A stretch of DNA of 24,423 bases from a virus (taxonomy: Duplodnaviria; Heunggongvirae; Uroviricota; Caudoviricetes). Every line of letters begins with the position of its first letter. Within the stretch, counting starts at the first letter, position 1. Positions 646-24,423 of this stretch are shown here, piece by piece. A program made the translations under genes and the position numbers. Location of the stretch: IMG/VR virus record IMGVR_UViG_2681813316_000024, positions 1 to 24,423 of that record. One strand, 5' to 3'. Below the pieces are notes generated by a model. The model saw only the letters and a list, made by a program, of their open reading frames with translations. It ran no database searches and had not been told where the DNA came from.

Positions 646-876
646 TTAAGCACAACGGAAAGCCTTCTTTCATGCCCTGCTTAGGCTCGACACTAAGTAT
701 TTGGGAGAGTTGGCTTCCCCATGTGGTTAAAACATGGTTTGTAATGGGTACTCAGCCAAAGAACCTTCCTGTAGGGCGCTGAGCTAAGTCTCACGTAGTA
801 GCCACCACATCCTAACCTGCTACCTCAGGAAATCGGTCGAAAGACGCCTGATAAACGTAACTGGTCCCCTTCAGCT

Positions 877-1233
877 ATGGCTAGACCGGCCAGTCGAAAA
901 GCAGTATCGTCACTGCCTGCCATAGCGAACATAGACGAGCAACTAGACGAGGTTGTTATGGAAAAAATCTCTGGAAGAGAACTGCATTTTCTCAATCGAA
1001 TTCTTCAATTTAAGCAGGAGAGAATTGCTGATTCTGACGTACAGGATGATGAGATTCTCATGGTTGACTCATTGGTCCGTCATGGATATCTTGCTGTTGG
1101 CTTTTTCGACCGTGATAATAACGGCGGATATCATAGCTTAATGCAATACTACTCTCTTACCGAACTTGGCGTTGCAGCTCATAAAGATGAATGGAAATGG
1201 AGAGGGAATCCAAATTCAAATAAAGGTCGCTAA
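877..1233 (+). CDS. Hypothetical protein (118 aa; 91 aa if started at ATG 958) on a foreign insert between pR'/tR' and the lysis genes
   Basis: This is the only long ORF in the 0.65-1.5 kb gap. ATG 958 has a good SD (GAGG, then 5 nt). ATG 877 has none. The stop codon sits in the loop of a strong terminator hairpin. The pattern ...SGRELHFLNRILQF...DSLVRHGYLAVGF... looks like a small winged-helix fold, but I recognise no family. Confidence 0.5.
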   Translation: MARPASRKAVSSLPAIANIDEQLDEVVMEKISGRELHFLNRILQFKQERIADSDVQDDEILMVDSLVRHGYLAVGFFDRDNNGGYHSLMQYYSLTELGVAAHKDEWKWRGNPNSNKGR

Positions 1234-2320: not shown

Positions 2321-2754
2321 GCAGAGTAACCGCGATTATCTCCGCTCTGGTTATCTGCATCATCGTCTGCCTGTCATGGGCTGTTAATCATTACCGTGAT
2401 AACGCCATGACCTACAAAGAGCAGCGCGATAAAGCCACATCCACAATCGCTGACATGCAGAAGCGTCAACGTGATGTAGCTGAACTCGATGCCAGATACA
2501 CAAAGGAGCTTGCTGATGCTAACGCGACTATCGAAAGTCTCCGTGCTGATGTTTCTGCTGGGCGTAAGCGCCTGCAGGTCGCCGCCACCTGTGCAAAGTC
2601 AACGACCGGAGCCAGCGGCATGGGCGATGGAGAAAGCCCAAGACTTACAGCAGATGCTGAACTCAATTATTACCGTCTCCGAAGTGGAATCGACAGGATA
2701 ACCGCGCAGGTTAACTACCTGCAGGAATACATCAGGACGCAATGCCTTCGATGA
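2317..2754 (+). CDS. Rz: Inner-membrane spanin subunit Rz (i-spanin)
   Basis: ATGA start/stop overlap with R. It has an N-terminal TM helix ([18 protein letters not shown]) followed by a charged coiled-coil periplasmic part. The first ~30 aa match lambda Rz; the remainder differs. Confidence 0.9.
2516..2701 (+). CDS. Rz1: Outer-membrane lipoprotein spanin subunit Rz1 (o-spanin), embedded in the +1 frame of Rz
   Basis: SD AAGGAG (2503-2508) lies 7 nt before ATG 2516. The signal peptide [19 protein letters not shown]|C carries a lipobox. The mature part is about 41 aa and proline-rich ([13 protein letters not shown]). It is wholly nested inside Rz, the classic lambda/P22 architecture. Confidence 0.8.
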
Positions 2755-2894
2755 TAGCGATAATTTTACTCATCATCCTTCACATCTGGCTCTGTAGACA
2801 GGGTGGTGATCACTTCTGGAGTGAATCCAGATTAAACATCTCATTGCTGATGCTTGATATTGAGCATCTGGCGCGCGGTAAGGGGCTGCGTTGA
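2751..2894 (+). CDS. Possible 47-aa small membrane peptide, translationally coupled to Rz (speculative)
   Basis: I found this by hand; it is below the ORF-track size cutoff. ATG 2751 overlaps the Rz stop (ATGA). The product is [47 protein letters not shown], with a strongly hydrophobic N-terminal 15 aa. I know of no homologue. Confidence 0.2.
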
Positions 2895-3133
2895 GATAAG
2901 AGCCAGTTCATTACAAAGCCTATCTACTGGTGGGCTTGATAATGAAACCGGAATTTATTCTGGGTAACCAGTTACGGCAGTACAGCGAAACAACCCAAGC
3001 CAGTAAGTGGGGAAATAACACTGGCAGCCACTGAAAGATGAACCTCCTGCCTTATGGCAAAAAAAGATTCTTTGTGGTGGCGGACTGATGGAAAGACATC
3101 CTAATCAAGCAACCACTCCACAGGGTCATAATT

Positions 3134-3514
3134 ATGAACGACCAGCAAATCGAAAAAGAAATCGTTGAGAAAGGCAAAACCGCTCCGAGAATCACTCCGC
3201 AGCACATCGAAGACGTGATTAAAAGCGAGCATTACTTTACTGCTTATGATGGACGTAATGGTGCCATTTCCAGCAACGAATATTGTGGCAGGGAAAAACC
3301 AGAAGAAGGCGATCGTGATTTATCACCATTGAAGTTGCTCACTTTCTGCGTACTGGTGCTGAAGAATGGCTTCACCGTCACCGGAGAGAGTGCCTGTGCA
3401 AGCCCGGAAAACTTTGATGCAGAAATTGGTCGGAAGATTGCCCGGCAAAATGCTGTAAACAAAATCTGGATGCTCGAAGGTTACTTGCTGAAGCAGAAGC
3501 TAAGCGAACAGTAG
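3134..3514 (+). CDS. Conserved phage protein, probably N4 Gp49 / Sf6 gene 66 family (unknown function)
   Basis: 126-aa ORF. The C-terminal pattern ...LTFCVLVLKNGFTVTGESACASPENFDAEIGRKIARQNAVNKIW.LEGY resembles that family as I remember it. It lies between lysis and terminase genes, as in other P22-like phages. Confidence 0.6.
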   Translation: MNDQQIEKEIVEKGKTAPRITPQHIEDVIKSEHYFTAYDGRNGAISSNEYCGREKPEEGDRDLSPLKLLTFCVLVLKNGFTVTGESACASPENFDAEIGRKIARQNAVNKIWMLEGYLLKQKLSEQ

Positions 3515-3617
3515 TTATTACAAAAGCCATTCCCTACAGAGTGGCTTTGATAATGGCTTATACCCTACACGGGATAACTTAACTGATATCCCTTTTAACG
3601 GATAAACGGAGCCAACA

Positions 3618-4384: not shown

Positions 4385-5861
4385 TAACCTGAGCGACGAA
4401 GAGCAAATCGAATTGCTCGAGCTACTCGAAGAAGAAGAGAACTACCGGAACACACACCTGCTATATGAATTTACGCCATACAGCAAACAGCGTGAGTTCA
4501 TCGACGCCGGGCATGACTATCCAGAGCGATGTTTTATGGCTGGTAACCAGCTTGGTAAGTCATTTACTGGTGCTGCTGAAGTCGCGTTTCACCTTACAGG
4601 GCGTTATCCGGGAACAAAAGGCTATCCGGATGATGGTAAATATGGCGGGGAGTGGAAAGGTAAGCGTTTCTATGAGCCTGTTGTCTTCTGGATTGGCGGC
4701 GAGACAAACGAGACGGTAACCAAAACGACTCAACGCATCCTGTGCGGTCGTATCGAAGAGAATGACGAGCCAGGCTACGGTTCCATACCGAAAGAAGACA
4801 TCATTAGCTGGAAGAAGTCTCCTTTCTTTCCGAACCTTGTTGATCACCTTCTGGTTAAGCATCACACGGCTGATGGCGTTGAAGATGGCATTTCAATCTG
4901 CTACTTCAAACCATACTCGCAAGGCCGTGCTCGCTGGCAGGGTGACACAATCCACGGCGTGTGGTTTGACGAAGAGCCACCATACAGCATTTATGGCGAA
5001 GGTCTTACCCGTACCAACAAATACGGGCAATTCTCAATCCTGACGTTTACCCCGCTGATGGGGATGTCTGACGTTGTTACCAAGTTCCTGAAGAATCCCA
5101 GCAAGTCGCAGAAAGTGGTCAACATGACCATCTATGACGCTGAGCACTACACCGACGAGCAGAAAGAGCAAATCATCGCATCCTATCCTGAGCATGAGAG
5201 AGAGGCGCGTGCTCGCGGTATTCCTACGATGGGTAGCGGACGAATCTTCCAGATACCGGAAGAGACGATTAAGTGTCAGCCGTTCGAGTGTCCTGATCAC
5301 TTCTACGTAATTGGCGGGATGGATTTCGGATGGGATCACCCACAGGCGCAGGTTCAGCTTTGGTGGGATAAGGACGCAGACACAATCTACGTTTCACGCG
5401 TGTGGAAGGCGAAAGAAAAAACAGCCGTTCAGGCATGGGGAGCCGTTAAATCATGGGCGCATAAAGTGCCAACAGCATGGCCTCATGACGGAAACCAGCA
5501 TGAGAAGGGCGGTGGTGAGCAGCTCAAAGGGCAGTATGCAGACGCTGGATTTATGATGTTGCAGGAGCATGCGACATGGCCTGATGGCGGTAATGCTGTT
5601 GAGCCTGGCATCACTGAATTGCGAGACATGATGCTCGATGGCCGCTTCAAAGTATTCAACACCTGTGAGCCATTCTTTGAGGAGTTCCGCCTCTATCACC
5701 GTGATGAAAACGGGAAGATCGTCAAGCTTAACGACGACGTTCTCTCAGCCGTTCGCTATGCATACATGATGCGCCGCTTCGCCAAAATGATGCGCGACAT
5801 CAAAAAACCAAAAGAGAAAAAGATACCAGCCCCAATCAGGCCCATCGCACGGAGAACTTAA
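4362..5861 (+). CDS. 2: Terminase large subunit (P22 gp2 type)
   Basis: The 499-aa product matches P22 gp2 in length and N-terminus ([30 protein letters not shown]...). The Walker A-like motif GNQLGKS is present. It overlaps the gene 3 end by 23 nt. Confidence 0.95.
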
Positions 5862-8027: not shown

Positions 8028-8040
8028 GAGAGAGTTAACC

Positions 8041-10247: not shown

Positions 10248-10255
10248 TAACCAGA

Positions 10256-10277: not shown

Positions 10278-10291
10278 ATCTGGAGACAAAC

Positions 10292-10528: not shown

Positions 10529-11006
10529 TTTAGTCCTTGCAGCATTACGTAAGCTCGGTGTTGCATCAAATGCCACGTTAACCGATGTCGAACCGCAGTC
10601 TATGGAAGACGGCGTCAACGACCTTGAAATGATGATGGCTGAATGGCTTGGCGGTGATGTGTCACCTGGTATCAACGTTGGCTACATTTTTGCTGATGCA
10701 GATGTCGCTCCGGATCCGGGCGATGAGCACGGTTTATCAAATAACGCTATCAATGCCGTCATTTTCAACCTTGCCTGCCGCATTGCTCCGGATTATGCGC
10801 TGGAATCGTCAGCAAAACTTATAACCACTGCCAGATACGGGAAAGAGCGACTCGTCAAACTGTCTGCAATGGACAGAGCAAAAGCCGCTAAATGTAAGTC
10901 CGGTTATCCAAACCGTATGCCTGTTGGTAGCGGTAACCAGTTGGCGAAGTGGAACGGTTGGAATTACTTCCACCGAAAGGAACCTTGCGATAACGGGAGC
11001 GAATAA
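10506..11006 (+). CDS. 4: Head completion / tail adaptor protein (P22 gp4 type)
   Basis: Starting at ATG 10506 gives 166 aa, the length of P22 gp4. The sequence ...[37 protein letters not shown]... and ...[13 protein letters not shown]... matches P22 gp4 as I remember it. Confidence 0.9.
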
Positions 11007-12425: not shown

Positions 12426-13126
12426 TGGTTGATTCATCACTGAATAATCCTGTCGCGGTTCAGGCTACGCGCCTTGATGCTTCAATTTTGCCACGCAATA
12501 TATTCAGCCAGTCTTACATGCTGTATGTCATAAATCAGGGTGCTGATGTTGGCGCAATTGCCGGGAAGGCAAATCAGGCTGGTCAGGGCGCTTACGATGC
12601 TCAGGTGAAAAACGATGAACAGGACGTCGAGCTGGCAGATCACGATGCAAGAATCACCGCAAACACAAAAGCGATAAATCTCCTTGAGGTCAGGTTAACA
12701 ACCGCCGAAGGGAAGATAGTCGTACTACGTAGCGATGTTGATTACTTGCTGGATGAGGTTATCGATATTCAGGCGCATCTGGTCACTGTTGACCAAAGAC
12801 TGGATGGCGTAGAAAGCGATGTATCTGACATTAAGAGTGATTACGTATCGAAAACCGTAACCGAATCGCAGTCTCTTGCGTTACCGCTGGATGTAAAAAC
12901 ATCATATTCAGTTGATGGAATTCAGGTTATTGGAGCAAGAAATACCGGATGGACTGCAGCCACAGGTACACCTCTTCTTGGCTCATTCAACGCTAACCAG
13001 TCATACACAGTCGGCACTACGTACACACAATCCGAAGTCGCAGCACTCGCTACAGGTTTGCAGCAGGCGCGGCAGCGTATTCTGGCGCTTGAAACGGCAC
13101 TTAGATTACATGGGCTGATTGACTGA
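12425..13126 (+). CDS. 26: Tail needle / plug protein (P22 gp26 type)
   Basis: 233 aa, the length of P22 gp26. The N-terminus .[23 protein letters not shown] and the motif [22 protein letters not shown] are recognisable. It has a heptad coiled-coil core. Confidence 0.9.
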
Positions 13127-13581
13127 TGATTACATTCAAACCAACGCGAAACATCGACCTGATAGAAGCCGTAGGAAATCACCCTGACATTATCGCCGGG
13201 AGCAACAACGGTGATGGATACGACTACAAACCTGAATGCCGTTACTTTGAGGTTAACGTGCACGGGCAGTTCGGCGGAATTGTTTACTATCAGGAGATTC
13301 AGCCGCTGACCTTTGATTGCCACGCCATGTACCTGCCAGAGATTCGCGGATTCAGCAAGGAAATAGGGCTGGCGTTCTGGCGATACATTCTGACTAACAC
13401 CACCGTTCAGTGCGTCACATCGTTCGCTGCACGCAAATTCCGCCACGGGCAGATGTACTGCGCAATGATTGGCCTTAAGCGTGTAGGAACCATCAAGAAA
13501 TACTTCAAAGGCGTGGATGACGTGACATTTTACAGTGCTACACGCGAAGAACTAATCGACTTCCTGAATCACGGGAGATAG
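13126..13581 (+). CDS. Gene in the P22 gene-14 position (virion assembly / ejection-protein assembly factor); assignment by synteny
   Basis: 151-aa ORF coupled by a TGATG overlap to the needle gene and located directly before the three ejection-protein genes. I cannot confirm sequence similarity to P22 gp14 from memory. Confidence 0.55.
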   Translation: MITFKPTRNIDLIEAVGNHPDIIAGSNNGDGYDYKPECRYFEVNVHGQFGGIVYYQEIQPLTFDCHAMYLPEIRGFSKEIGLAFWRYILTNTTVQCVTSFAARKFRHGQMYCAMIGLKRVGTIKKYFKGVDDVTFYSATREELIDFLNHGR

Positions 13582-13583
13582 CC

Positions 13584-14276
13584 ATGTTATATGCATTTAA
13601 GCTGGGCAGAAAACTGCGCGGCGAGGAACCTTATTGCCCTGAAAAAGGCGGGAAAGGTGGCAGCTCTGATAAAAGCGCAAAGTATGCAGCAGAAGCTCAG
13701 AAGTATGCCGCAGACCTGCAAAATCAGCAGTGGCAGACGATCATGAAAAACCTTGCTCCGTTCACGCCTCTTGCGGAGCAGTATGTTAACCAGCTTCAGA
13801 ACCTTTCCAGTTTAGAAGGTCAGGGGCAGGCACTTAATCAGTATTACAACTCTCAGCAGTATAAAGACCTTGCAGGTCAGGCTCGTTACCAGAGTCTTGC
13901 TGCTGCGGAGGCGACGGGTGGACTTGGTTCGACAGCCACAAGCAATCAACTGGCTACGATCGCGCCGACACTCGGTCAGTCTTGGTTATCAAATCAGATG
14001 AGCAATTACAACAATCTGGCAAACGTTGGGCTTGGTGCGCTGCAAGGTCAGGCAAACGCCGGGCAGACGTACGCCAACAACATGAGCAGCATTGCACAGC
14101 AAAGCGCAGCTCTTGCCGCTGCTAATGCCAATAAACCATCAAGTCTTCAGACCGCAATTAGCGGTGGCACGTCTGGTGCGATTGCCGGTGCAGGTCTTGC
14201 CAGCCTTTTGGAAACATCAACGCCTTGGGGCGCTGGCATTGGTGCTGGTATCGGATTGCTTGGCTCGTTGTTTTAA
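13584..14276 (+). CDS. 7: Ejection (internal virion) protein, P22 gp7 type
   Basis: 230 aa. The N-terminus MLYAF.LGRKLRGEEP..PEKGGKGGSSD.SAKYAAEAQKYAADLQNQQ matches P22 gp7 as I remember it. The body is low-complexity and Q/A/G-rich. Confidence 0.85.
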   Translation: MLYAFKLGRKLRGEEPYCPEKGGKGGSSDKSAKYAAEAQKYAADLQNQQWQTIMKNLAPFTPLAEQYVNQLQNLSSLEGQGQALNQYYNSQQYKDLAGQARYQSLAAAEATGGLGSTATSNQLATIAPTLGQSWLSNQMSNYNNLANVGLGALQGQANAGQTYANNMSSIAQQSAALAAANANKPSSLQTAISGGTSGAIAGAGLASLLETSTPWGAGIGAGIGLLGSLF

Positions 14277-14285
14277 GGGGTAATC

Positions 14286-15692
14286 ATGGCTACTTGGCAA
14301 GGAACAAACGGCGGATTGTTGGCTGGTATCGGCGGCGTCAACTCAAACGCTCCGAGCGTAAATGACATCGGCAATACGCTTCAGCTTATCAGGCAGAACA
14401 ATGATATTGAGCGTTCAGGCGCTAACAATGTTGGGCTGACTGCTTTGCAAGGCCTTTCAGGTATTGCGGGGGTGTTTCAGCAGGAAAAGCAGGCTCAGCG
14501 GCAGAAAGAATTTCAGCAGGCATACGCTAATGCTTATGCGTCTGGTGATCGCGGTGCTTTGCGTCAGTTAGCTACTGAATATCCAGACCAGATTGAATCC
14601 GTTCGTAAAGGCATGGGATTCATTGATGAAGACCAGCGCAATTCCATCGGTACCTTAGCGGCTGGCGCTCGCCTTGCGGCATCGTCTCCAGAAGCGATGC
14701 AATCATGGCTGCAAAACAACGCCAAGGAACTGACTCGCGTAGGTGTTGACCCTAATAACGTTGCTCAGATGTATCAGCAGAATCCTTCAGGATTTGGTGA
14801 GTTTGTTGATCACCTTGGGATGGCTGCTCTCGGTCCGATTGACTACTTCAATGTTCATGACAAGATGGCTGGTCGTGAGATTGACCGAGGCAGGCTGGCA
14901 GAGACAATCCGCAGCAATCGGGCTGGAGAAGCACTTCAGGCGAGAGGGCAAAACCTTTCCTATCAGTCAGCAATGACTGGGCACAATATCGCAGCACAAC
15001 GCTTGGCTCTGGATCAGCAAGAGTTCGGGTTTAAGATGCAGCAAGCGCAGGAAAAGGCTCAGCAGTTGATTAGCGAAGCACCTAAGCTGTCAGTAAACAT
15101 GGAAAAAGGCATCGAGACGGCTGTAAACAATGCTACAGCATCATCAAACTCAGCCAATTCTATGAGTGCGCTTGCTCAACAGTTCAGAGCAGAAAAACCA
15201 ACGACAGGTTTGTTCGGTAACGCACAGAACATGTTCGCAAAACTTACCGGAAGCGATACAACATTGCGTGATTTGCGCATCCGCCAAAATGCCCTTGTTA
15301 ACAGTCAGGTTCTTAAATTCCTACCTCCAGGCCCCGCAACGGATAAAGACGTTGAGATCGTTCGGCAGGGGGCACCAACTGACATGGATAACCCTGAGAC
15401 GGTCGCAAGATGGCTTGATGCGATGGCAAACCTTGAGCGACGAAACGCGCAGTTTAATGAGTTTAAAGCCGAGTGGATGAGCGCGAATGGCAATCCAGGA
15501 CAATCGCGTAATGGCGGTCAGATATTGGGGTTGGATGTTAAAAAAGGTGAATCATTGGGGAGTGCCGTTAAGCGGTATATGTCAATGAATACTGACGCAG
15601 CGCCAGCACAAGATTCGACACCTTCAGGAGAACCACGGAATCAGGTTGGATCATATACCTCAAAATCAGGCATTCAATTTACGGTGGAATGA
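14286..15692 (+). CDS. 20: Ejection (internal virion) protein, P22 gp20 type
   Basis: 468 aa (P22 gp20 is about 471 aa), in the correct syntenic position with similar composition. Confidence 0.8.
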
Positions 15693-17920
15693 TGAAAGTA
15701 ACTGCAAACGGTAAGACATTTACCTTCCCTGATGGTACGAGCACGGAAGATATTGGCACCGCCATTGATGAGTATTTTGCTGGTCAGGCTGTTCAGCAAC
15801 AAACAGTTAATCAGGCCAATAATGAACCAGCACGGGAAGAACCATCATTGATGCAACAAGCTGGCGATTGGCTCACTGGTGGTCAAAGTGCAGGGCAAAT
15901 TGCAGAACAGGCTGGTCGTGGTCTGGTAAACATACCATTTGACGTATTGCAGGGTGGCGCAAGTCTGATTAATGCAATCAGTCAGGGGCTTGGGGGGCCA
16001 AAAGTATTGGATGATGTTTATCGTCCAGTAGACAGACCGACAGACCCCTACGCGCAAGCTGGAGAGTCAATAGGCGGTTATCTTGTTCCTGGAGCAGGTG
16101 TAGCTGGAAACATGGTCATTGGTTCTCTCGCTGACGCGGCGAATCAACGGGGTGATTTTGCCGAAAATGCCGCTATTAATGCCGGACTTAACATTGCTAC
16201 GCATGGCCTGATAAATGGCGTTACCCGTGGTGTTCGTGGTGCATCAAATATAATTAGTGGCAATAAAACATCTGCACAGAGAGCGACCACTGCGCCAACA
16301 GAAACATCACCATTCTCAGGTGATGCCGCTGCAGCAACAAATCCTGAGATTCATGCCGCAGAGGCAAGAGTAGCACAAGGTGTACCAATGATGCCTGCGA
16401 CGAGGAACCCAGAGGAAGTCGTTCGCACAGTAGCAGCACAAAAAAGGCCAAATCTCGCTTCATCGCTTGATGAACTAGATATCAATCCTCAGGCTGAAGT
16501 TCTGGAGTCTGCTGAAAGGCTTAATGTTGATTCATTACTCCCTTCACACTTTTCCGGGAACGAGCAATACAAGGCAGTTGAGCAAGCAATCAAGTCCCGT
16601 GCGGGTTCTGCTCTACAGGTGCAGGAAAATGAAGCAATCAGGCAGCTAGCACAGGGCGCGGGGGAGATAATTGATCGCGTTTCCGGTGCAAAAGATGCTC
16701 TTGGTATGAGCGACAAGTTTATTGATACGGTCAATGGAAGAATGTCTGCGCTGATGAAACGAAGCGACCAGCTTTATCGCAATGTTGAAAAGGCGATGCC
16801 TGCAGGTGCAAAAATTGATGCGCCATCAACAAGGTCAATGCTCAAACAGGTGGCAGAAGATCTTGGCGGGATGAAAAACCTTGACCCTATTGAAAAGAGA
16901 GTCTTTCGGGCAGTTAATCCAGGCAAGAACGGCGCATTAACTTATGCAAATCTCAATAAGCAACGACGACTTGTTGGTGATGCACTTCATAAGAATTCTG
17001 GACCATATAAAGATGCTGATCGCGCTGCTTTATCGAGGCTTTACGGTTCGCTCGCCGATGATCAAAAGGCGGCGCTGTCAGAGACAAATGCATTACGTGA
17101 TTTTGAAGTTGCTCAGAGGCTTGTTCAGATGCGAAAAAGCATGGAAGAGCAAATGATTAATCTAACTGGCAGAACGCTGAACGGTGATGTTTCTCGCAAA
17201 GCAACTACAGCACTACAGGCAATGTCGAAAGGCGATGCCAAAGGATTTCGTGAATTGATGCAAAACACGCCGTCCAGGAAGCTAAGAACCGAGCTACTGG
17301 GAACAGGTCTTCGGGATATGCTTTCGAACGGAAAACGTGGCGCTGATTTTAATCCTGCAGGGTTTGCTGACTGGTATCAAAACATGTTAGCAAACGGGCA
17401 GATGCGCAATCTTGCCCGACATTTACCAAAAGAGACTATGTCAGGTCTGAACGATGTATATAAGGTCGCAAAGGCTATCAAAGACGCAAAATCTTACGAG
17501 ATAACTACAGGAAGACTAAACGAGTTCGTCAAACGGTTTAATCGCGTCACTGCGGCAAATGAATTTGTTGCTAACCATGCCCAACGCATTGGCACTGCGG
17601 TTGGTTCAACTGTGTCAGGACCGTTCAGTGCAGTAGGTGCTGTTGCTGGGTCAGAAATTGGGGCAAAAGTCGCCAGCAAAATCAGGGTGATGGGCGGCGC
17701 TGCATCAATGGAATCTGCAGAAAAGCTAATTAGCTCACCAGAATTCCAGAAAGCAGCAAGGCTGGCAGTAAAACAAGCACCAGAAAGCATCGTTGATACA
17801 ACTGTAAGACGCTCTTCTGCTTGGCGCTCGTTTTACAACTCACTTCCAGAATCAGATAAGAAAACCATATCAAGGCTAGGCATCATGTACTGGATGAACA
17901 GTGATGATAACCAGAAGTAA
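15689..17920 (+). CDS. 16: Ejection (internal virion) protein, P22 gp16 type, enlarged
   Basis: The N-terminus (M)[32 protein letters not shown] matches P22 gp16 as I remember it. ATGA overlap with gene 20. It is 743 aa, against about 609 aa for P22 gp16. Confidence 0.85.
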
Positions 17921-18198
17921 CGGAAAGCCACGGATGGTTAGTTGCAGTCTTTTTTATATAAATCTCTGTCCATAAATCCTCCTGTTTACCAAAACTATAT
18001 CAAACTTTAACGCAATGCTGCGCAACTTAAGTGACTGTCAGGTTGATAACAGACACTCTTTTTTGCATGATTCCTTTAGACCATCACAATTGATGAAGAA
18101 TCATGAAAAGAAGAACTCTTCTAAAGTCTTTGCTCGGCCTGACGTCACTCTTACCAGTTAAGTTTGCAGCATCTCAAAACCTGCAAGGTAAAAGTATA

Positions 18199-20436
18199 AT
18201 GTCAGACATTACACCCAATGTTGTAGTGAGTATGCCTTCGCAACTCTTCACTATGGCTCGTTCTTTTAAAGCCGTAGCTAATGGAAAGATTTATATCGGG
18301 AAAATTGACACTGACCCGGTAAACACTGAAAACCAGATTCAGGTTTATGTAGAGAACGAAGATGGTTCTCACGTTCCTGTTTCGCAACCAATCATCATTA
18401 ACGCTGCTGGATATCCGGTATATAACGGACAGATTGCCAAATTCGTAACCGTGCAAGGCCATTCTATGGCTGTTTATGATGCGTATGGTGCGCAGCAGTT
18501 CTATTTTTCGAATGTGCTGAAGTATGACCCTGACCAACTCAGGCAAGATCTTGCATCTCAAGGAGGTGTTAATCTGGTAAACGGAGCTATCTCACAGGAA
18601 GATCTTGTTTTGCAGTCGATCACAAAAATTCCAAGTTATGATAATTCTAACGTAGTCCAGGCGTGGCGCGATAGTGTTGCGACCTACGGGTATGTTTACT
18701 TCTCTAATCATTCAAAAAATCAGATGGTGTACACCGTACCGTCTACAGCTGCTAACGCTTCTTTCCTTGCGAACAGTAAAGTAATCATTGATAAAAATGT
18801 CACCCTGAGATTCGACAGTGATCTGTACTCACTGTTTAAATCGTTGCAGTACGAGGGGGAGGGTACGTTTGAATTTACGCACCTGAACTTTAAAGCAACC
18901 GGTGGAGAAGTGGATTATCTGGCTAAGCAGGCCATCCTCAACCGAAACCCTATTCGCATGAAGCGAGTGGAATGGTCAGATTGTAAAGTTTATTCCATAA
19001 ATGGTGACACGTTCTTCTATGAAGGTGAAGTCACCATATCCTCAGATAGCGCAGCTATCTTCCCCTTAACTACTGACCGTACAACAGGCCTGTTCGCACC
19101 AATAGATATTGGAGAGCATATTTCTGCACATATTCGTATGGAATCTCAGGCCGCCTCAGAAGTTGGGATTGTTCTGCGATGCTCTGGTGGTTGGATGATG
19201 TTCTATGGGGCACCAGGTGCTACACAGTGGTCTTATAGACAGAAACCAATTGGTGGTCCAGTAGCAGAAGGAACTCCATTCCCGCTGCCAGGAGGTTTAC
19301 TGTCGTACGCCCCGGGCAAAGCAACCGTTGGCGTATCACTGCAAGGTAAAAACTGGGCGCAGATAACGATGAATGGCGTTGGGATACGTTTGCCCTTTGA
19401 TACTGCTGATGTAGGGGATGTATACGAAGTTGGGTTTGTTGCACTGACCACGGCATCTGGAGGTTCTGCGCGTGTAACTGGATTATGCAGCTACACCTCT
19501 GATAATGGCGTGCACGGTAAGCCTCCACTTAATATCCTTATCCACGGTGATAGTACAGCTGAGGATTTCATTTCCGCGTTCAGCTCGTACATTCCGCAAT
19601 TAATGGATGGAGCGAACGGCCACCGTTCACATAGCATTGTAAACAAGGCAGTTGCCGGACAGACAATGAGGCAACAGTTAGATCTCCTGAAGGCTCAGGG
19701 GCCGGGTGATGCTTACATCGTTATTATGGTTGCCGGAACTAACGAAGGGCAGGCAAACCAAAACGGCGATTATATGGCGTCATTGATAGATGAGTTTGTC
19801 TTATATTGCAATGGCCTTGGTCGTATCCCTGTTTGGGTTGAGCCGTGGATGTGGTATAGCCAGTCATTTATTGGAGGGGCTGGCCAGCCATCTTCTAACT
19901 ACGACGGTGTCGCAGAGTTGCGAGAAGCTGGTAAACGCCAGATGATGAAATATGGCAATAACGTCATTTGTGTAACAACAACTCACCAGCTCCCGGCCCC
20001 ATATCCAGAGTATTTCAATACGCAATACGACCCACTTCTGCGTGATGACATTCACCAAAGCCAGTTAGGGTATCGTCTGTATGCGGAAATTATCTGCTCT
20101 GCCATTATCGACTGGTGGTCGCGTGTTGATTACACGCCAAGAGCAGCTGTTCAATGGTGGGCTGGAACAAACGTAACAGTACAGGCACCGTCAAGTTTAA
20201 CTGCCAATTCAATTAATATTAAACTGGCAGCCACTTCATTTGCGAATGGTAATACTGTTCTAACGCTGCCAAGGTGGTGTAGACCAACAGTAACAAAAAA
20301 TGTCCCTGTACCGTTCACTGCTGATGGAATATCTTACGGTATGGCGATGGCAACAATAAGCGCATCAACCGGGTCGATAACAATTAATGGATCTACTACA
20401 GCCTCACCAATATTTTACATTGATGCTTCCTGGTAG
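18199..20436 (+). CDS. Tailspike: P22-type head-binding domain fused to a non-glycanase receptor module containing an SGNH/GDSL esterase domain
   Basis: From ATG 18199 the product is 745 aa. Residues 1-113 ([11 protein letters not shown]...[21 protein letters not shown]...[13 protein letters not shown]...NVLKYDPDQ) match the P22 gp9 N-terminal domain up to the known YDPDQ hinge. The rest is unrelated to the P22, Sf6 or HK620 beta-helix as I remember them. SGNH blocks are I: LIHGDS (G450-D451-S452), II: [11 protein letters not shown]: AGTNEG, V: DDIH (D616..H619). The track ORF start at 18103 adds 32 codons that I consider untranslated. Confidence 0.9.
19517..20120 (+). other. SGNH hydrolase (acetyl-esterase-like) domain inside the tailspike
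   Basis: All four catalytic or oxyanion blocks occur in the canonical order and spacing: GDS at nt 19546-19554, G of block II at about 19650, GTNE at about 19735-19746, DxxH at nt 20044-20055. Domain borders are approximate. Confidence 0.75.
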
Positions 20437-20465
20437 AAAAAGGCCGCAATGCGGCCATCTTTTAC
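20437..20465. terminator. Bidirectional intrinsic terminator shared by the convergent tailspike and SGNH genes
   Basis: GGCCGC-AAT-GCGGCC (20442-20456) is flanked by A5 on the left and ATCTTTT on the right. It lies between the tailspike stop (20434-20436) and the stop of the minus-strand gene (20462-20464). Confidence 0.8.
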
Positions 20466-21157
20466 TTCACATGTTTATTAATCTCTCTCATCCAAACGGC
20501 ATAGCCATTTTTATTTAAATGCACTCCATCATCAAAGTACAATTCAGATTTTTTATCAGATAAAAAATCTGCAGGAACTTCTATTATATTGCAGTTAACT
20601 ATGCGACTACATGTTCTATCAATAATAGAGTTAATCATGCTTATTCTTGAATTGACATGGTCTACGTCTTTTCTTGCCCCGCTTATGATTGGCAAAACTT
20701 TTAATGCATAAATATTATCAACCTTTGATACACTCTTAAGCAGTTTGTCATAATCATCAAATATTTCCTCTTCGGTTTTCGCACCCATCGCATCGTTAAC
20801 TCCACCTTCAATTATCGCAGCTTTATATCCAGACGCCCCATAATTTTCTGATAGAGTTAGGATCTGATGTATAGAGTATCCTCCGACCCCCATATTAACA
20901 TATTTAAAGTTTAACCCATATGGTGACATTCCTTGTATGAGCGAGTCGCCATAAACCACAATGTCGCCGTCAGCTTGATTAGCATTCATTTTTTTAAAAT
21001 CTAGCATCACAGCCTGAAAGTCGTTAACTTTTTTTTGAGATAAATAATTTCTAATTGAACGAACAGACAATACTATAATAACTATTGCAATCAGAATAAA
21101 CAGCATTGCCAAATATTTATTTGCTTGAGACTTTCTATTTGTTTGTTTTGACTTCAT
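20462..21157 (-). CDS. Membrane-anchored SGNH/GDSL hydrolase-fold protein (231 aa), standalone
   Basis: SD AAGGA lies 7-8 nt upstream of the ATG. It has a single N-terminal TM helix (YLAMLFILIAIVIIVLSV). SGNH blocks are I: VVYGDSLIQG, II: NMGVGGYS, III: EGGVNDA, V: DDGVHLN. The gene is AT-rich. The layout resembles the TM-linker-SGNH C-terminal half of OafA/OafB-type O-antigen acetyltransferases. Confidence 0.8.
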   Translation of the reverse strand: MKSKQTNRKSQANKYLAMLFILIAIVIIVLSVRSIRNYLSQKKVNDFQAVMLDFKKMNANQADGDIVVYGDSLIQGMSPYGLNFKYVNMGVGGYSIHQILTLSENYGASGYKAAIIEGGVNDAMGAKTEEEIFDDYDKLLKSVSKVDNIYALKVLPIISGARKDVDHVNSRISMINSIIDRTCSRIVNCNIIEVPADFLSDKKSELYFDDGVHLNKNGYAVWMREINKHVK

Positions 21158-21241
21158 TGCATTTTCCTTTTAATAAGGTTTAAGGTTAAAAATATATTTA
21201 CGCTTCAAATCAACGAATTGAGAAAATTATTCAGCCAACCA

Positions 21242-21520
21242 CTAACTAGACTTGCAATCTAATCTTATATATGATCTGAGTAAGAGTGTAAAAATCCGCT
21301 TAATCCTTCTTAAGTAAAAATCGGAAAAAGAAAATTTACCGCTATTTAAATTTTTAAAAATAATACTTGAAATTAAAAGGCTAGATATTATGAAAAATAA
21401 ATCAAACCCATTGAACTCTCCAGAAAATGCGCTTGGGAAAGCGTGAAACATCACAACAGCGACTGCTCTTAAACCATCTATACCAGCTCTATACTTTATC
21501 ATTTTTATTGTCCAATTCAT
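21242..21520 (-). pseudogene. Remnant of the N-terminus of an AT3 (acyltransferase_3) gene
   Basis: The 92-aa ORF contains MIKYRAGIDGLRAVAVVMFHAF...DLFFIIS...FYLRRIKRIF. These are the first three AT3 signatures (R/H of TM1, FF..S, RR..R). It then stops after about 90 aa, where an intact AT3 domain needs about 330-370 aa. It has no SD, and the SG(F/Y)LI motif is degenerate (SSLLIS). Confidence 0.55.
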
Positions 21521-21805
21521 CTACAGTGAAAGAGCAAAGAAAAACAATGCAATATATCTCATGTGACTACCCCTAAAATAAATTTAATGATAATAACATC
21601 ATGAGGATAAATTTAGAAGTGGGAAGATCGGAAATGCTCATTGAGCAGCAGAAAAAATATCACTGACTCTGTATACACATACAGTATTTTTTGTCTGTTA
21701 TTGATCATTGGATACTTGAGCCTAGCGTAAAAGTAATATGAATGATACAGTATGCTTATATAATTGATTTTTGCTCTCGGTGTAAGTTCGGATTGTATTA
21801 TATAA

Positions 21806-21837
21806 CCAGAAAATATCCCCAGAACTAAGCTGGGGAT
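21806..21837 (-). terminator. Intrinsic terminator after the AT3 acyltransferase gene
   Basis: On the minus strand, ATCCCCAG-CTTAGTT-CTGGGGAT (8-bp perfect stem, 21815-21837) is followed by ATTTTCT. It starts 13 nt after the stop codon at 21850. Confidence 0.6.
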
Positions 21838-21849
21838 TCATGTCATATG

Positions 21850-22890
21850 TCAGCTTGCTAGTGCGATCTTCCTAAGCCTGTGACCTATATTTATAGATGG
21901 TTTTTCAATTACCTTATAAGAAATAGTTGCTAGTGCGATCGTAGCTAATAGGTATAAAACAAAAATAATAAAATTAAAATCTGTGTCCATGTCTATACTG
22001 ACAGATACAATCTCTAAAAAGAATGGGTGAATCAAGTATACAGAGTAACTTATCGATCCCAGGAAAACCAATAATCCTACATTCAATTTTACCCGTGTAG
22101 TGAGCAATAGCGTCAATACTATGCCTGTAAGATAGCTAGCAATATAGGAGGAAGCATTTTCCCCATGCCCATAGTCTTTATTGTAGGACATTAAGCAAAT
22201 CGGAGCAATCGCCACTAGGAATGTTATTAAAAATACAATGCACATATTTCTTTCTGATCTCGATGCAATCCCAATGCTCACTGAACGCCATAAGCTACCA
22301 AAGAACATTAATGACATAGCTAGCGGTATTGCCACAGGAACTTTTTTATCAAGAACGAATCTCACGTATGAGAAAGCAAGAGCGGTTGCAATAAGTCCTA
22401 TAGAAATTAAAAATAAAGAAACCTTACTCTTTAATAAATTTACTTTGAAAAGAAACGCACAGGAAGCATAGAAGAACAACTCAATTATTAGCGTCCAATA
22501 AACACCAAACATATCTGGAGATCTCAGTAAAGATTGAAGCATGGTAATATTAGACAACAGAGTTCTTATATCAAGTGGTCTATGAGTTACAAACAAAAAA
22601 GTAAAGGCCGCCAGAAATACTGAAAACCAGTAAGCGGGATATAGTCTAAAAAACCTTGATATAATGAACCCGGATATCGCTCTTTTCCCTTCCTTTAGGC
22701 TGTAAGGTATTACCATGCCACTTAACACAAAGAAGCAAACAACACCAACCTGACCAAAGTTAACATGCTTAAATAAAAAACTGTTATGCAATGGTGTTCG
22801 CTCTATGAAATGTGCACATGCAACCATCAGGGCTGCAAGTCCACGCAAAGAGTCTAGGAATTCTAGACGATTTCCATTTCTTATAGACAT
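21850..22890 (-). CDS. Integral-membrane acyltransferase, AT3 family (Oac-like O-antigen/polysaccharide O-acetyltransferase)
   Basis: 346 aa, polytopic and hydrophobic. AT3 signatures are RLEFLDSLRGLAALMVACAHF (R...H), VVCFFVLSG, SRFFRLYPAYW, YWTLIIELFFY and SISYSVYLIHPF. Its size and position (between tailspike and int) match Sf6 oac. About 30% G+C by eye. Confidence 0.85.
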   Translation of the reverse strand: MSIRNGNRLEFLDSLRGLAALMVACAHFIERTPLHNSFLFKHVNFGQVGVVCFFVLSGMVIPYSLKEGKRAISGFIISRFFRLYPAYWFSVFLAAFTFLFVTHRPLDIRTLLSNITMLQSLLRSPDMFGVYWTLIIELFFYASCAFLFKVNLLKSKVSLFLISIGLIATALAFSYVRFVLDKKVPVAIPLAMSLMFFGSLWRSVSIGIASRSERNMCIVFLITFLVAIAPICLMSYNKDYGHGENASSYIASYLTGIVLTLLLTTRVKLNVGLLVFLGSISYSVYLIHPFFLEIVSVSIDMDTDFNFIIFVLYLLATIALATISYKVIEKPSINIGHRLRKIALAS

Positions 22891-22925
22891 TAAAGATACC
22901 TAAGTTAAGTGTAGTAATAGGATTA

Positions 22926-22953
22926 ATTTTAACAGCATGATTCTGTTGATCAA
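22926..22953 (-). promoter_or_regulatory. Candidate sigma70 promoter for the AT3 gene
   Basis: On the minus strand, TTGATC (22953-22948), a 16-nt spacer and TAAAAT (22931-22926) lie about 35 nt upstream of ATG 22890. This is prediction from sequence only. Confidence 0.35.
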
Positions 22954-23204
22954 TGGATAAGCAGCGTGTTTTGAAGTTGATCTGATTTTTACTATGATTA
23001 TATTGTGTTCTCGCACAGTATTTTATCGTAAGTGCACTATGGGCTTCTATCTCCAGCAGCAGAACTAGTTGAAGATAGTGTGTCAATCGACAAGAGCCTT
23101 ATTGCTCCAATCTCAGTCACGTACATGATGATATCCGTCAGGTCATTATCAACGAAGAGTGTTATGGTTAGTTTGATTATTGTGCGGTGATGTGAGAAAA
23201 ACTT

Positions 23205-23235
23205 AGAAAAACAAAGTCTTGCACTGGATTGCAAG
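23205..23235 (-). terminator. Possible intrinsic terminator downstream of int
   Basis: On the minus strand, CTTGCA-ATCCAG-TGCAAG (23235-23218) is followed by ACTTTGTTTTTCT. It begins about 30 nt after the int stop codon (23268). Confidence 0.45.
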
Positions 23236-23267
23236 GCTTTGCGCTATTCGATTGTGGTTGAGGCTGA

Positions 23268-24423
23268 TCACTTCACCTTTTCATCAAGCCAATCCGCCCA
23301 CCACTGCATCATTTCTCTGCGCTTATCGAGATACTGAGCGTGGTTGTAAATCCCGCGCACAGATCCGCCGTTGGCATGTGCCAGTTGCACTTCAATAGCG
23401 TCAGCAGGCCATTCGTGCTCGTTCATAATCGTGCTGAATTCATGCCTGAATCCGTGACCGCTTTCCAGACCTTCATAGCCGATTTGTTTGATCACAAGCA
23501 GTACAGCGTTCTGGCAAATTGGCTTCTTCTTATCGTTGCGCCCGGCAAAAACAAACTCTGACACTGGTTTAGTGATTGAGCTTAGCGTAGTGAGAAGTTC
23601 AATCACCTGGTCTGACATAGGAACCACATGAATTTTTCGACCCTTCATCACACTGGCGTCGATGGTGATAATCCTGTTTTCAAAATCGACGTTCTTCCAT
23701 AGCATGGAGCGAAGCTCTTTCGTTCTTAGGGCTGTGTAGCGCAAAACTTTAGTCGCAATGAGCGATACGATGCTCCCTGAAAATGTTGCCAGTGCTTTGT
23801 TGAATGCAGGGATCTGGTCTGCAGGAAGAAACGGGAAGTTCTTCTTGCGGTATCCCTTCATGGCGTCAGCAAGGTCAGGTGCCGGGTTATATTTAGCCCT
23901 ACCAGTGACAATAGCGTAACGGAAAACCTCGCCGCATCTTCTGCGGGCTTTATTTGCTCGCTCCATTGCACCGCGATCTTCAAATCTGCGGATTACTTCC
24001 AGTAGTTGCATCGGCTCAATATCCTGAATTTCAAGACCGCCGATGATGGGTAAAATGTCGTCATCAAACATTTTTGCAAGTTCATTTGCATAGCCCTGAC
24101 CAGACTTGCTTCTTGTGCTCGTACCATTCCTTGTAAATGGCGCTAAAGGAATTGTTGTTAGACGAAGCCTTTTTCGCCTTTACCGGATCGATGCCAACCG
24201 AGATGTCTTTCCTCGCAGTCCATGCTTTATCCCTTGCCTCTTGCAAAGTCATAAGCGGATATTTTCCGACGGTCAGGATTTTCTCCTTACCGTCAATCTT
24301 GTAGCGAAGCTGCCATACCTTTTTCCCTGACACAGGGACATAAAGGTACAGGCCATTACCATCGAGTAGGCGGTATGGTTTTTCTTTCGGCTTTGCTGCT
24401 TCAATCTGCTTAACGGTGAGCAT
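23268..24423 (-). pseudogene. int: Tyrosine integrase, P4 / IntS / Sf6 (argW-type) family, interrupted by a frameshift; start codon at the window edge
   Basis: Two adjacent ORFs (24423-24082 and 24071-23268) together give about 385 aa. The N-terminal DUF4102-type arm domain is MLTVKQIEAAKPKEKPYRLLDGNGLYLYV...KVWQLRYK. The catalytic residues sit in ...YTALRTKELRS..., ...HGFRHEFST... and ...HANGGSVRGIYNHAQY. The sequence looks nearly identical to E. coli K-12 IntS (CPS-53) as I remember it. The frames switch at the GGG run (plus-strand CCC, 24094-24096). Confidence 0.85.

Follow-up and report, generated by a model that had tools for sequence, protein, structure and literature searches.

The DNA analysed here (the window, 24,423 nt in full) belongs to a P22-like E. 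coli prophage, which lies at argW in matching complete genomes. Adjoining its tailspike gene is a slot that holds an AT3-only acyltransferase gene (AT3-346), the wreck of a fused AT3-SGNH gene, and a gene for a membrane-anchored SGNH protein of 231 aa (SGNH231). The tailspike gene (18199..20436, plus strand) encodes a P22-type protein, 745 aa from the annotated start, with an N-terminal head-binding domain (PF09008, E 1.6e-66). SGNH-like motifs occur in its C-terminal region (GDS at aa 450, AGTNE, and DDIH at aa 616; approximately nt 19546-20055), where the match to PF13472 is weak (E 1.5e-3, under the gathering score), and hhalign aligns all four SGNH blocks, though at no more than 10% probability. 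The SGNH231 gene (20462..21157, minus strand) converges on the tailspike gene, and a bidirectional terminator-like hairpin, GGCCGCAATGCGGCC, lies between them at 20442..20456; six hairpins of this kind were found in the region, compared with 1.4 expected.

The segment had been described, from lines counted by eye, as AT-rich relative to the structural genes, and formal calculation agrees: G+C is 33.8% over 20462-22953, compared with 49.3% over positions 1-18100 and 46% in the tailspike gene. Codon usage follows the same pattern, GC3 being 0.29 and 0.33 for the AT3-346/SGNH231 gene pair and 0.42 for the tailspike gene.

The AT3 cassette, the OafA-type remnant and the flanking genes

AT3-346 is encoded by an intact gene on the minus strand (21850..22890), and its 346 aa match the Acyl_transf_3 profile over essentially its full length, as originally proposed (PF01757, positions 2-325 of 326, E 2.3e-30, 106 bits with a cut-off of 31). 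It also matches phrog_3333, annotated 'O-acetyltransferase' (E 5e-56). Oac, OafA and OafB cannot do without an R/K-X10-H motif in transmembrane helix 1 and an RXXR motif in the loop between helices 2 and 3 (PMC7448272); AT3-346 contains R16-X10-H27 and R79-F-F-R82, and these four residues are invariant in 17 homologues. A simple hydropathy scan detects nine peaks, ten transmembrane helices being the AT3 criterion, and dN/dS is 0.06-0.12. PF01757 is the sole recorded domain in all 120 of the homologues among the matches listed, with full-length members of approximately 330-400 aa.

The gene had been credited with both a promoter-like element and a terminator of its own, and the latter is confirmed. 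A terminator-like hairpin (21815..21837, minus strand) lies 13 nt after the stop codon, and because homology to another prophage contig (L034) stops at 21815, this hairpin marks the downstream edge of the AT3 cassette. A weak sigma-70-like match upstream of the gene (22926..22953, minus strand; TTGATC-16-TAAAAT with TG, 9/12 matches) does exist, but such sites occur at chance frequency (15 found, 13 +/- 3.9 expected). A relative of AT3-346 stands alone beside tail-fibre genes in L033, and no SGNH-family gene was found within the available flanks of further relatives (L040, L042-L045). As judged from these contexts, AT3-346 is a one-gene cassette that travels without SGNH231 and is also solitary in unrelated prophages. 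It would be a self-contained AT3-only O-acyltransferase, most likely acetylating O-antigen alone.

The description of the locus as two stand-alone genes was incomplete, as the 692-nt spacer separating them holds a third, PF01757-matching element that had been overlooked. It is what is left of a fused AT3-SGNH(PF19040) gene of the OafA type (21205..21520, minus strand), recognised by blastn against L003 and by alignment of the junction. An internal deletion of ~1.67 kb has brought approximately the first 73 codons next to the last ~30, and an additional 9-nt deletion has converted R-X10-H of the first transmembrane helix to R-X7-H. The 92-aa ORF that survives (21242..21520) matches PF01757 positions 2-81 only, while the intact L003 homologue is a protein of 660 aa with PF01757 and PF19040. 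Window positions 21510..21291 correspond to L003 positions 693..922 at 83% identity, and 21296..20305 to 2593..3589 at 77%. By domain content, this dead gene is the sole one of the OafA type in the window. A perfect LexA-box-like palindrome, CTGT-N8-ACAG, lies ~150 nt upstream of it (21669..21684), in a 300-nt stretch of spacer with no homologue among the loci compared.

Two other genes nearby are damaged, so that the oafA-like gene, humD and intS all show decay. The umuD-like humD remnant (23015..23255, plus strand) has lost ~250 bp internally by comparison with L023, in which humD occupies 5233..5622: window positions 23255-23165 correspond to L023 5172-5263 and 23146-23015 to 5514-5644. A degenerate copy of the humD LexA box lies beside it at 23003-23020. 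Compared with the intact intS of complete genomes, the intS-type integrase gene (23268..24423, minus strand) has lost 2 bp near 24096, which splits it into ORFs of 113 and 267 aa.

Comparison with L003, L015, L033 and L034 resolved the slot into separate blastn blocks: AT3-346 (22979/23075..21815), the remnant (21510..21291), and the SGNH gene together with the tailspike (21296..20305). Furthermore, the 96% identity between L003 and L015 starts at approximately codon 42 of the SGNH gene and extends across the tailspike; upstream of that codon they are unrelated. AT3-346, the OafA-type remnant and SGNH231 have separate histories, and the slot is of mosaic ancestry. Origin of AT3-346 and SGNH231 from one gene or lineage was considered and rejected in view of these separate blocks, the distributions of the two families, and the state of the window's OafA-type gene as a remnant.

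SGNH231 and its fused, paired and solitary relatives

The gene for SGNH231 is intact, and its product matches Lipase_GDSL_2 (PF13472, E 9e-14, 52.8 bits with a cut-off of 32.9), the only other Pfam match being PF00657. The original prediction of one N-terminal transmembrane helix and a complete SGNH set is well founded: there is a single hydrophobic segment at approximately aa 16-35, and four blocks, GDS (S72), GVGG (G92/93), GGxND (N121) and DGxH (D210/H213), are invariant in 26 sequences, as are two cysteines in the family. An AlphaFold2 model (mean pLDDT 88) consists of a helix at aa 3-61 followed by an SGNH fold with the alpha/beta/alpha architecture. The predicted Shine-Dalgarno sequence was likewise located (AAGGA, 21169-21165, 7 nt before the ATG), while no promoter-like minus-strand site was found between the AT3-346 terminator and the SGNH231 gene. 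With dN/dS values of 0.09-0.18 relative to its relatives, SGNH231 is under long-term purifying selection. The exact protein is recorded on 126 contigs; because all copies of the window allele are identical, they are uninformative on selection since the rearrangement.

The charges flanking the anchor (+5 on the N-terminal side and +3 on the C-terminal side) are in the N-in/C-out direction, as they are in 15 of the other 25 homologues, with seven neutral and three weakly opposite. In a 595-aa fused relative, described below, the helix corresponding to this anchor sits directly after the AT3 domain, and PhoA/LacZ mapping of Oac placed the C-terminus of its 10-helix AT3 domain in the cytoplasm (PMC9833829). 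The two invariant cysteines point the same way, and the SGNH domain of SGNH231 is probably periplasmic.

The suggestion that SGNH231 resembles the TM-linker-SGNH half of a fused enzyme is supported, although the enzyme is of another kind than the one named. A 595-aa AT3::TM::SGNH protein (PF01757 plus PF13472) is 73% identical to SGNH231 over its aa 368-595. It occupies the same slot (argW-intS-humD-[gene]-tailspike, with a tailspike 96% identical to that of the window) in E. coli SRY149 and IMG/VR contigs, and is present at this locus in complete E. coli genomes. A split counterpart occurs in L024 as a bicistron with its genes 11 nt apart, the AT3 protein (377 aa) being 60% and the SGNH protein (222 aa) 56% identical to the respective halves of the fusion. 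Because the SGNH domain is absent in all but two of the 120 matches listed for its AT3 part, the 595-aa fusion appears to be the derived state; a fused gene of this type is degraded in L019. The OafA/OafB-type SGNH domain is PF19040, found in the 660-aa protein of L003, a 611-aa protein of L022 and a 639-aa protein of L034, whereas SGNH231 carries PF13472, so it is not the product of a split OafA.

The close family of SGNH231 is small and phage-borne, and its genes are nearly always convergent with a receptor-binding-protein gene, with three types of attachment domain represented (P22 Head_binding, Tail_spike_N and the T7 tail-fibre N-terminus). A survey of synteny, one of the checks originally proposed, gave a divided result. 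Distant ~240-aa TM-SGNH relatives in chromosomal polysaccharide clusters have an AT3-only gene directly downstream in 5/17 loci, compared with 0/63 loci of generic SGNH proteins (Fisher p = 2.6e-4; AT3 genes confirmed by Pfam; the two genes overlapping by up to 58 nt or lying up to 31 nt apart); in L058 this layout is embedded in a cluster whose other members include a GT4 glycosyltransferase gene and a Wzy-like one. Yet within the phage family, pairing was seen in L024 and nine of 14 distinct contexts lack an AT3 gene in the available sequence, up to 5-6 kb on each side (L007/L021, L008, L009, L020, L025, L028, L030, L048 and L049/L050, with L055/L057 resembling L048), and SGNH231 therefore cannot in general depend on a phage-encoded AT3. 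Since its relatives are fused to, paired with or devoid of AT3 proteins, the family looks like a detachable partner, and the idea of a detachable SGNH half is supported for it by these sequence comparisons.

Transfer, hydrolysis or disuse

The interpretation we favour overall, held tentatively and at somewhat less than an even chance, is that of a mosaic conversion slot in which SGNH231 is a transferase taking acetyl from a non-cognate or host AT3. The region would be a lysogenic-conversion slot for surface-glycan acetylation, built from three independent acquisitions, with the OafA-type fused gene destroyed by deletion. SGNH231 would supply the SGNH part, periplasmic and anchored in the membrane, of an acetyltransferase type with two components, AT3 and SGNH. 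Because the SGNH catalytic domain stays linked with the tailspike gene, its choice of acceptor appears to be matched to the receptor of the phage. The upstream membrane module that donates acetyl would be swapped among alleles: some have a cognate AT3, either fused or separate, others an OafA-like gene or AT3-346. The window lacks the cognate AT3 lineage, and the AT3 gene found 692 nt upstream is non-cognate, so SGNH231, if a transferase, must use a non-cognate donor such as AT3-346 or a host AT3, e.g., WecH. The acetyl group would pass through Ser72 to the glycan. An O-antigen substrate, transfer instead of hydrolysis, and the identity of the donor are all points that we infer for SGNH231. 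Two published observations bear on their plausibility. WecH, an AT3-only protein, can stand in for the MBOAT protein PatA as the partner of PatB, a separate SGNH protein (PMC9558356). Furthermore, the oxyanion hole of the S. aureus transferase OatA is a canonical Ser/Gly/Asn one (PMC9487903), and a complete SGNH set is thus no argument against transfer.

Several observations weigh on the other side. Autonomous activity is a simpler account of the nine AT3-less contexts, and in allele B (L003) the upstream gene has an SGNH domain of its own, which would leave a second one with no need to act in transfer. AT3-346 is unrelated to the cognate AT3, belongs to a normally solitary family and has its own terminator; no promoter was found for SGNH231 after replacement of its native upstream region, and the neighbourhood is decaying.

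Autonomous hydrolysis is the main competitor, and transfer is preferred to it only tentatively, hydrolysis being possible but on the unlikely side. SGNH231 would then be a periplasmic O-acetyl esterase anchored in the inner membrane, an 'eraser' to which the AT3 neighbours are independent 'writers'. Acetyl would be stripped from O-antigen units before ligation, removing a feature of the receptor on which this phage or related ones depend, and the tailspikes may be esterases as well. This would explain why the catalytic residues are all invariant though most contexts lack an AT3 gene, and would spare SGNH231 a promiscuous protein-protein hand-off with AT3s of three unrelated types. It is also consistent with the convergence on receptor-binding-protein genes of three attachment types in nearly all contexts, with the closest structures being esterases, including a sialate O-acetylesterase, and with the clearly secreted SGNH proteins of other prophage modules, such as a Tat-signal protein of 378 aa in L034. 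Several of the convergent tailspikes have SGNH domains, the signal being weak in the window type and strong beside the solitary family members of L008 and L048, where PF13472 is clear. However, no Pfam SGNH match was found in the tailspikes of L007, L021 and L028, and no GDS...DxxH motif pair in those of L007, L021, L025 and L028, so there is no general tie to esterase tailspikes. Also against hydrolysis are the fusion of the 73% identical SGNH domain to an AT3 in allele A, the co-inheritance of an orthologous pair as a tight bicistron in L024, and the enrichment of distant relatives beside AT3-only genes. Among SGNH proteins that have a membrane acyltransferase as fusion or pairing partner, all those characterised to date are transferases (PMC9487903, PMC12148441).

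It is improbable that SGNH231 is a relic not yet decayed, idle here after loss of its cognate AT3 and promoter, with AT3-346 alone functional. The three damaged neighbours, the replaced upstream region devoid of a promoter-like site and the degradation of the fused gene itself in L019 would fit such a history, and the identical copies of the window allele are no evidence of selection after the rearrangement; against it stand the intact ORF, Shine-Dalgarno sequence and catalytic residues, the occurrence of the exact protein on so many contigs, and the low long-term dN/dS. Solitary family members are widespread, and persistence therefore needs no adjacent partner gene.

Least probable is the original prediction in its strict form, a co-evolved pair of genes for the halves of one OafA-type enzyme: strand and AT-rich segment are shared, and in one other contig (L034) an AT3 89% identical to AT3-346 is followed by a small SGNH gene, but that SGNH protein shares just 26% identity with SGNH231 and the contig matches the window's DNA in the AT3 gene alone, relatives of AT3-346 are elsewhere solitary in an AT3-only family, a terminator and an OafA-type pseudogene separate the two genes, the SGNH231 domain is not PF19040, and the cognate AT3 is of a different lineage (28% identity to AT3-346 over the N-terminal ~150 aa only), so that ancestry, as read from sequence, argues strongly against the pair.

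Returning to transfer from a non-cognate donor, a broader generalisation is doubtful and more speculative still: TM-anchored SGNH proteins of ~220-250 aa might be portable acceptor-specificity modules for AT3-only acyltransferases, promiscuous toward host and foreign AT3s. If so, they would be the 'missing SGNH partner' speculated on in the AT3 field, and a prophage with an SGNH gene alone, or beside a non-cognate AT3, would redirect acetyl (e.g., from WecH) to the O-antigen recognised by its own tailspike.

Relation to known systems

SGNH231 shares the canonical Ser/Gly/Asn/His set with S. aureus OatA's C-terminal SGNH domain (6VJP), although its identity to this domain and to SGNH esterases of the PAF-AH and sialate-esterase type (2HSJ, 1BWP, 7PZG) is only 14-19%; these structural neighbours are a mix of transferases and hydrolases and so do not decide between transfer and hydrolysis. 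SGNH-domain tailspikes and receptor-binding proteins, such as phage G7C gp63.1 and those of Klebsiella prophages, act as deacetylases (PMC13123978). The SGNH-like motifs of the adjacent tailspike and the PF13472 domains of the L008 and L048 tailspikes recall these proteins, whereas SGNH231, at 231 aa, encoded on the opposite strand and bearing a membrane anchor, is not a virion protein.

In Sf6, also P22-like, oac lies in the same slot as AT3-346, from tailspike to integrase and on the strand opposite the tailspike, and AT3-346 resembles Oac and the AT3-only OacB/C/D in its length of ~340 aa and its R-X10-H and RXXR motifs. It is not an Oac orthologue, since identity is only 28% over 145 N-terminal residues; Sf6 was not returned by tblastn of phage genomes, and its slot, unlike that of the window, contains no SGNH gene. 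Salmonella OafA and OafB (GtrC family II, fused AT3-TMH11-SGNH) are prophage-associated, O-antigen modifying proteins that join an AT3 to a periplasmic SGNH domain through one extra transmembrane helix, a logic also proposed for SGNH231 with an AT3 partner. The dead gene at 21205-21520 is exactly of that type, as its intact L003 homologue indicates, whereas SGNH231 is a separate polypeptide of the PF13472 family, and its 595-aa fused relative has its origin in a lineage of AT3-only proteins that is not related to OafA (23% identity).

In the current literature the two systems are an MBOAT with a separate SGNH protein and an AT3 with a fused SGNH domain (PMC12148441). In PatA/PatB, DltB/DltD and AlgI/AlgJ-AlgX the membrane partner is an MBOAT protein and not an AT3, and SGNH231 differs further in that its cognate partner gene is missing from the window and its family is known from sequence alone. 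Nevertheless, a like division of labour with a separately encoded SGNH protein, probably extracytoplasmic in the case of SGNH231, would be common to these systems and SGNH231, and the equivalent pairing, with an AT3 as the membrane partner, occurs in L024 and in five chromosomal loci.

Gene layout and a dead OafA-type gene

The two genes singled out by the original prediction, encoding a 346-aa AT3-only acyltransferase (AT3-346; 22890-21850, minus strand) and a 231-aa TM-anchored SGNH protein (SGNH231; 21157-20462, minus strand, preceded by AAGGA), were both found as described by ORF analysis, Pfam search, alignment and hydropathy, and the low G+C content of the segment was borne out when computed formally (33.8% for 20462-22953 versus 49.3% in the structural genes). 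A terminator-like hairpin downstream of AT3-346 (21837-21815, minus strand) supports the terminator assigned to this gene. The promoter proposed for it was not confirmed, as matches like the one upstream (22953-22926, minus strand) occur at chance level in this AT-rich DNA. SGNH231 is followed by a bidirectional terminator (20456-20442) and then by the convergent tailspike gene. Beyond the other end of the segment, intS (23268-24423, minus strand) lacks 2 bp near 24096 that complete E. coli genomes have, and so falls into ORFs of 113 aa and 267 aa; either the prophage has lost the ability to excise or the deletion is a sequencing error. The adjoining humD, which we take to encode a translesion polymerase subunit, persists as a remnant (23255-23015) that has lost about 250 bp internally relative to E. 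coli SRY149.

A stretch of about 300 nt after the AT3-346 hairpin, for which no homologue was found among the fetched loci, holds a perfect CTGT-N8-ACAG box (21684-21669). All related loci have such a perfect LexA-box-like palindrome ahead of their conversion genes (L003 407, L015 408, L023 5641, L007 5895, L028 4893, L024 7, L033 57 and L034 564; L-numbers denote fetched comparison loci), and in most cases it serves as operator for humD, a umuD-like gene that is divergently transcribed. In the window, the perfect box (21669-21684) has no humD beside it, and a degenerate box (23003-23020) adjoins the humD remnant. It is possible that the conversion genes are under SOS control.

Between the two intact genes, a 92-aa ORF (21520-21242, minus strand) gives a partial AT3 profile match, covering profile positions 2-81 only in the Pfam search. 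The closest homologue of SGNH231 among those listed (P0002, 76% identical) is encoded on contigs L003-L006 directly downstream of a 660-aa AT3-SGNH protein of the OafA/OafB type (PF01757 plus PF19040) and is convergent with a tailspike gene. In blastn comparisons, window positions 21510-21291 matched the first ~230 nt of the 660-aa gene (83%), and positions 21296-20305 matched the terminal ~90 nt of that gene together with the SGNH gene and the 3' end of the tailspike gene (77%), while the junction alignment revealed a 9-nt deletion that cuts R-X10-H to R-X7-H. It follows from this two-block match and the junction alignment that the spacer contains the wreck of an OafA-type gene from which about 1.67 kb is gone, a remnant that the original prediction had missed. 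The idea that SGNH231 is a mere C-terminal fragment of the deleted fused gene was rejected, since the 3' end and stop codon of that gene persist upstream of the SGNH231 Shine-Dalgarno sequence and since the homologues listed are nearly all stand-alone proteins of 212-245 aa (two entries are shorter), with an N-terminal hydrophobic helix.

Alleles beside one tailspike type and the origin of AT3-346

Three alleles were compared that lie beside tailspikes with receptor-binding parts (from about aa 114) that are 87-96% identical. In allele A, AT3 (PF01757, aa 11-345), a TM helix and an SGNH domain (PF13472) that is 73% identical to SGNH231 are joined in one 595-aa fusion protein; this allele was seen both in IMG/VR contigs and, at the same argW locus, in three complete genomes of E. 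coli. In allele B, the gene for the 660-aa OafA-like protein precedes one for a 228-aa SGNH protein, and allele C, that of the window, has a separate SGNH gene accompanied by a dead OafA-like gene and a non-cognate AT3. Between alleles A and B, identity is 96% from about SGNH codon 42 on and throughout the tailspike, with no relationship upstream of that codon. What is conserved as a unit is therefore the SGNH catalytic domain together with the tailspike, and the membrane module before it is exchangeable. Damaged copies were also seen: in L019 (573-1802) a fused AT3::SGNH gene is truncated and frameshifted, with loss of block V, and in two metagenome copies of the window allele (L051 4255-6494 and L054 5722-7961) the tailspike is split into ORFs of 570 aa and 195 aa. 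Such modules decay readily.

AT3-346 has no counterpart in L003 or L015 (blastn). An 81%-identical copy in L033 is solitary and adjoins myovirus-type tail-fibre and baseplate genes; an 89%-identical copy in L034 lies in a different module, in which DNA homology to the window is confined to the AT3 gene and its terminator and the small SGNH protein encoded nearby shares only 26% identity with SGNH231. No SGNH-family gene was found in the flanks of any of the five distant viral AT3-346 loci with downstream sequence (L040 and L042-L045), and PF01757 was the sole domain in all 120 hits listed for the AT3-346 family, full-length members of which have ~330-400 aa. AT3-346 occupies the same slot as oac of phage Sf6, although it is only 28% identical to Oac, over 145 residues. 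From these comparisons we conclude that AT3-346 is a self-contained cassette, an analogue of Oac. Close relatives of AT3-346 or SGNH231 were found in no isolated phage genome, and NCBIfam has no model for either protein.

The L034 prophage segment (690-6048) packs four acetyl-related genes into 6 kb, namely the AT3-346 homologue, a 227-aa SGNH protein, a 639-aa OafA-type AT3-SGNH protein and a 378-aa SGNH protein carrying a Tat-like signal (MNRRNLIKSAAIGALAFPF), which suggests combined 'writer' and 'eraser' modules.

The SGNH family, its AT3 partners and its tailspikes

An exhaustive profile search with the SGNH231 family returned 11 clusters at E <= 1e-30 and 1,337 at E <= 1e-10, with lengths of 220-260 aa for most of the 150 listed. 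The family hits phrog_14008, a group of no known function, and has a conserved juxtamembrane helix (F47, Q48, K55, Q61, D63, G64) and invariant catalytic blocks. An AlphaFold2 model of SGNH231 (pLDDT 88) consists of a long helix (residues 3-61) followed by an SGNH fold; the fold is thus confirmed, but it does not tell in which direction the reaction runs. Nor does the complete set of SGNH motifs, because S. aureus OatA, a transferase, also has a complete set and a canonical oxyanion hole (PMC9487903). Flank charges, an invariant Cys pair and the TM helix that follows the AT3 domain in the fusion suggest that the catalytic domain is periplasmic.

A cognate pair is encoded in L024, where an AT3-only gene (product 377 aa) is followed, after an 11-nt spacer containing GGAGG, by a TM-SGNH gene (product 222 aa). 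Over 367 aa, the L024 AT3 protein shares 60% identity with the fusion's AT3 part, and the L024 SGNH protein is 56% identical to the fusion's SGNH part; the same pair is therefore known both split and fused. Of the matches listed for the fusion's AT3 family, 118 (356-465 aa) carry PF01757 alone; an SGNH domain is present in addition only in the E. coli cluster of 595 aa and a 462-aa fragment thereof. The fusion is therefore the derived state.

When species-representative genomes were scanned, the close-family alignment (A1) gave no hits. The successful scan used a seven-sequence subset of more distant ~240-aa relatives (A6) and yielded 17 loci that match over the full length, including the anchor region, and 63 that match in the catalytic domain only or far more weakly. 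An AT3-only gene lies directly downstream in five of the 17, overlapping by up to 58 nt or spaced by up to 31 nt, versus no AT3 within 4 kb in any of the 63 (Fisher p = 2.6e-4). The same overlap occurs in metagenome locus L058, within a cluster that also encodes a GT4 glycosyltransferase, a Wzy-like protein and a further SGNH protein, and in other loci the SGNH gene lies in polysaccharide clusters adjoining hexapeptide acetyltransferases or flippases. The adjacency in the wider family speaks for a genuine split AT3 + SGNH system. The close family indicates that the SGNH protein can do without a phage AT3: AT3 is present in five of its 14 distinct contexts (the window, L003, L015/L023, L022/L056 and L024) and was not found in the other nine in the available sequence, up to 5-6 kb on each side. 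Pairs of a ~240-aa TM-SGNH gene and a following or overlapping AT3-only gene (L058 823-2719, L062 4007-5831, L067 3989-5736, L069 3959-5820, L070 3893-5710 and L071 3893-5711) occupy chromosomal polysaccharide clusters in several phyla; in L060 and L064, a hexapeptide-repeat acetyltransferase gene takes the place of AT3 downstream of the TM-SGNH gene.

In nearly all contexts the SGNH gene is convergent with a receptor-binding-protein gene, whether the product has a P22 head-binding, Tail_spike_N or T7-type tail-fibre N-terminus. Since the SGNH catalytic domain is so tightly linked to the receptor-binding-protein gene, receptor specificity and the acetyl editing of that receptor may well be inherited as one. 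Exceptions to the convergent layout were seen in an Aeromonas prophage, in which the family member (L009 6001-6663) adjoins a LuxR-type regulator, and in an N15-like telomere phage, a linear-plasmid prophage in which it lies between primase (PriCT_2) and protelomerase genes (L030 5001-5738). In L025, a second protein, of 289 aa (136-1005), which has a signal peptide, a GDS motif and a weak hit to PF13472, is encoded directly upstream of the TM-SGNH gene, and no AT3 gene was found in the 6.7 kb of contig sequence fetched.

The window tailspike itself shows the SGNH-like motifs GDS, AGTNE and DDIH, together with a weak hit to PF13472, at aa ~450-619 (19546-20055), and clear PF13472 domains are present in tailspikes adjoining solitary family members in L008 (6700-8949) and L048 (5699-7945). 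When the SGNH family was compared with the tailspike C-region by hhalign, all four blocks aligned at a probability of only 10%, so the esterase nature of the window tailspike is a lead only. As with G7C gp63.1, the tailspikes of the phages in the window, L008 and L048 may be O-acetyl esterases. An invariable association of solitary SGNH genes with esterase tailspikes was rejected, as the tailspikes of L007, L021, L025 and L028 show no SGNH motifs.

Possible roles of SGNH231 and known systems

The SGNH family looks like a detachable SGNH component of AT3-dependent acetylation. The original prediction of a detachable SGNH half thus holds for the family but not for the window, in which the partner that co-evolved with SGNH231 is absent, the former preceding gene dead, and the present upstream AT3 a foreign, normally solitary cassette. 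Our preferred reading, held tentatively and at somewhat less than an even chance, is that SGNH231 would serve as a module for acetyl transfer, with a non-cognate AT3, either AT3-346 or a host protein, as its donor, for which cross-talk between WecH and PatB provides a precedent of a non-cognate donor (PMC9558356). An autonomous periplasmic O-acetyl esterase would explain the solitary majority of contexts most simply, and is considered less likely, though a serious rival. That SGNH231 is a silent relic is improbable: long-term dN/dS is low (0.09-0.18 in the SGNH lineage and 0.06-0.12 in the AT3 lineage) and both lineages are therefore constrained, although all copies of the window allele are identical and thus say nothing on selection since the rearrangement.

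With its orphan SGNH gene beside a foreign AT3, the window is the least clean member of the allele series, and is of moderate interest alone and of more as an entry to that series. Our search of the literature found no described bacterial AT3-only protein with a separately encoded SGNH partner. Reviews of AT3 proteins ask how a stand-alone AT3 works without SGNH and whether a partner exists (PMC9558356, PMC9833829). Only two systems are recognised at present, MBOAT with a separate SGNH protein and AT3 fused to SGNH (PMC12148441; 2025 mechanistic paper). An AT3-only protein with a separate SGNH partner is listed in reviews as a possibility, and the alleles, the L024 pair and the chromosomal bicistrons constitute a natural, genetically tractable series in which the handing of an acetyl group from an AT3-only enzyme to a separately encoded SGNH protein could be tested.
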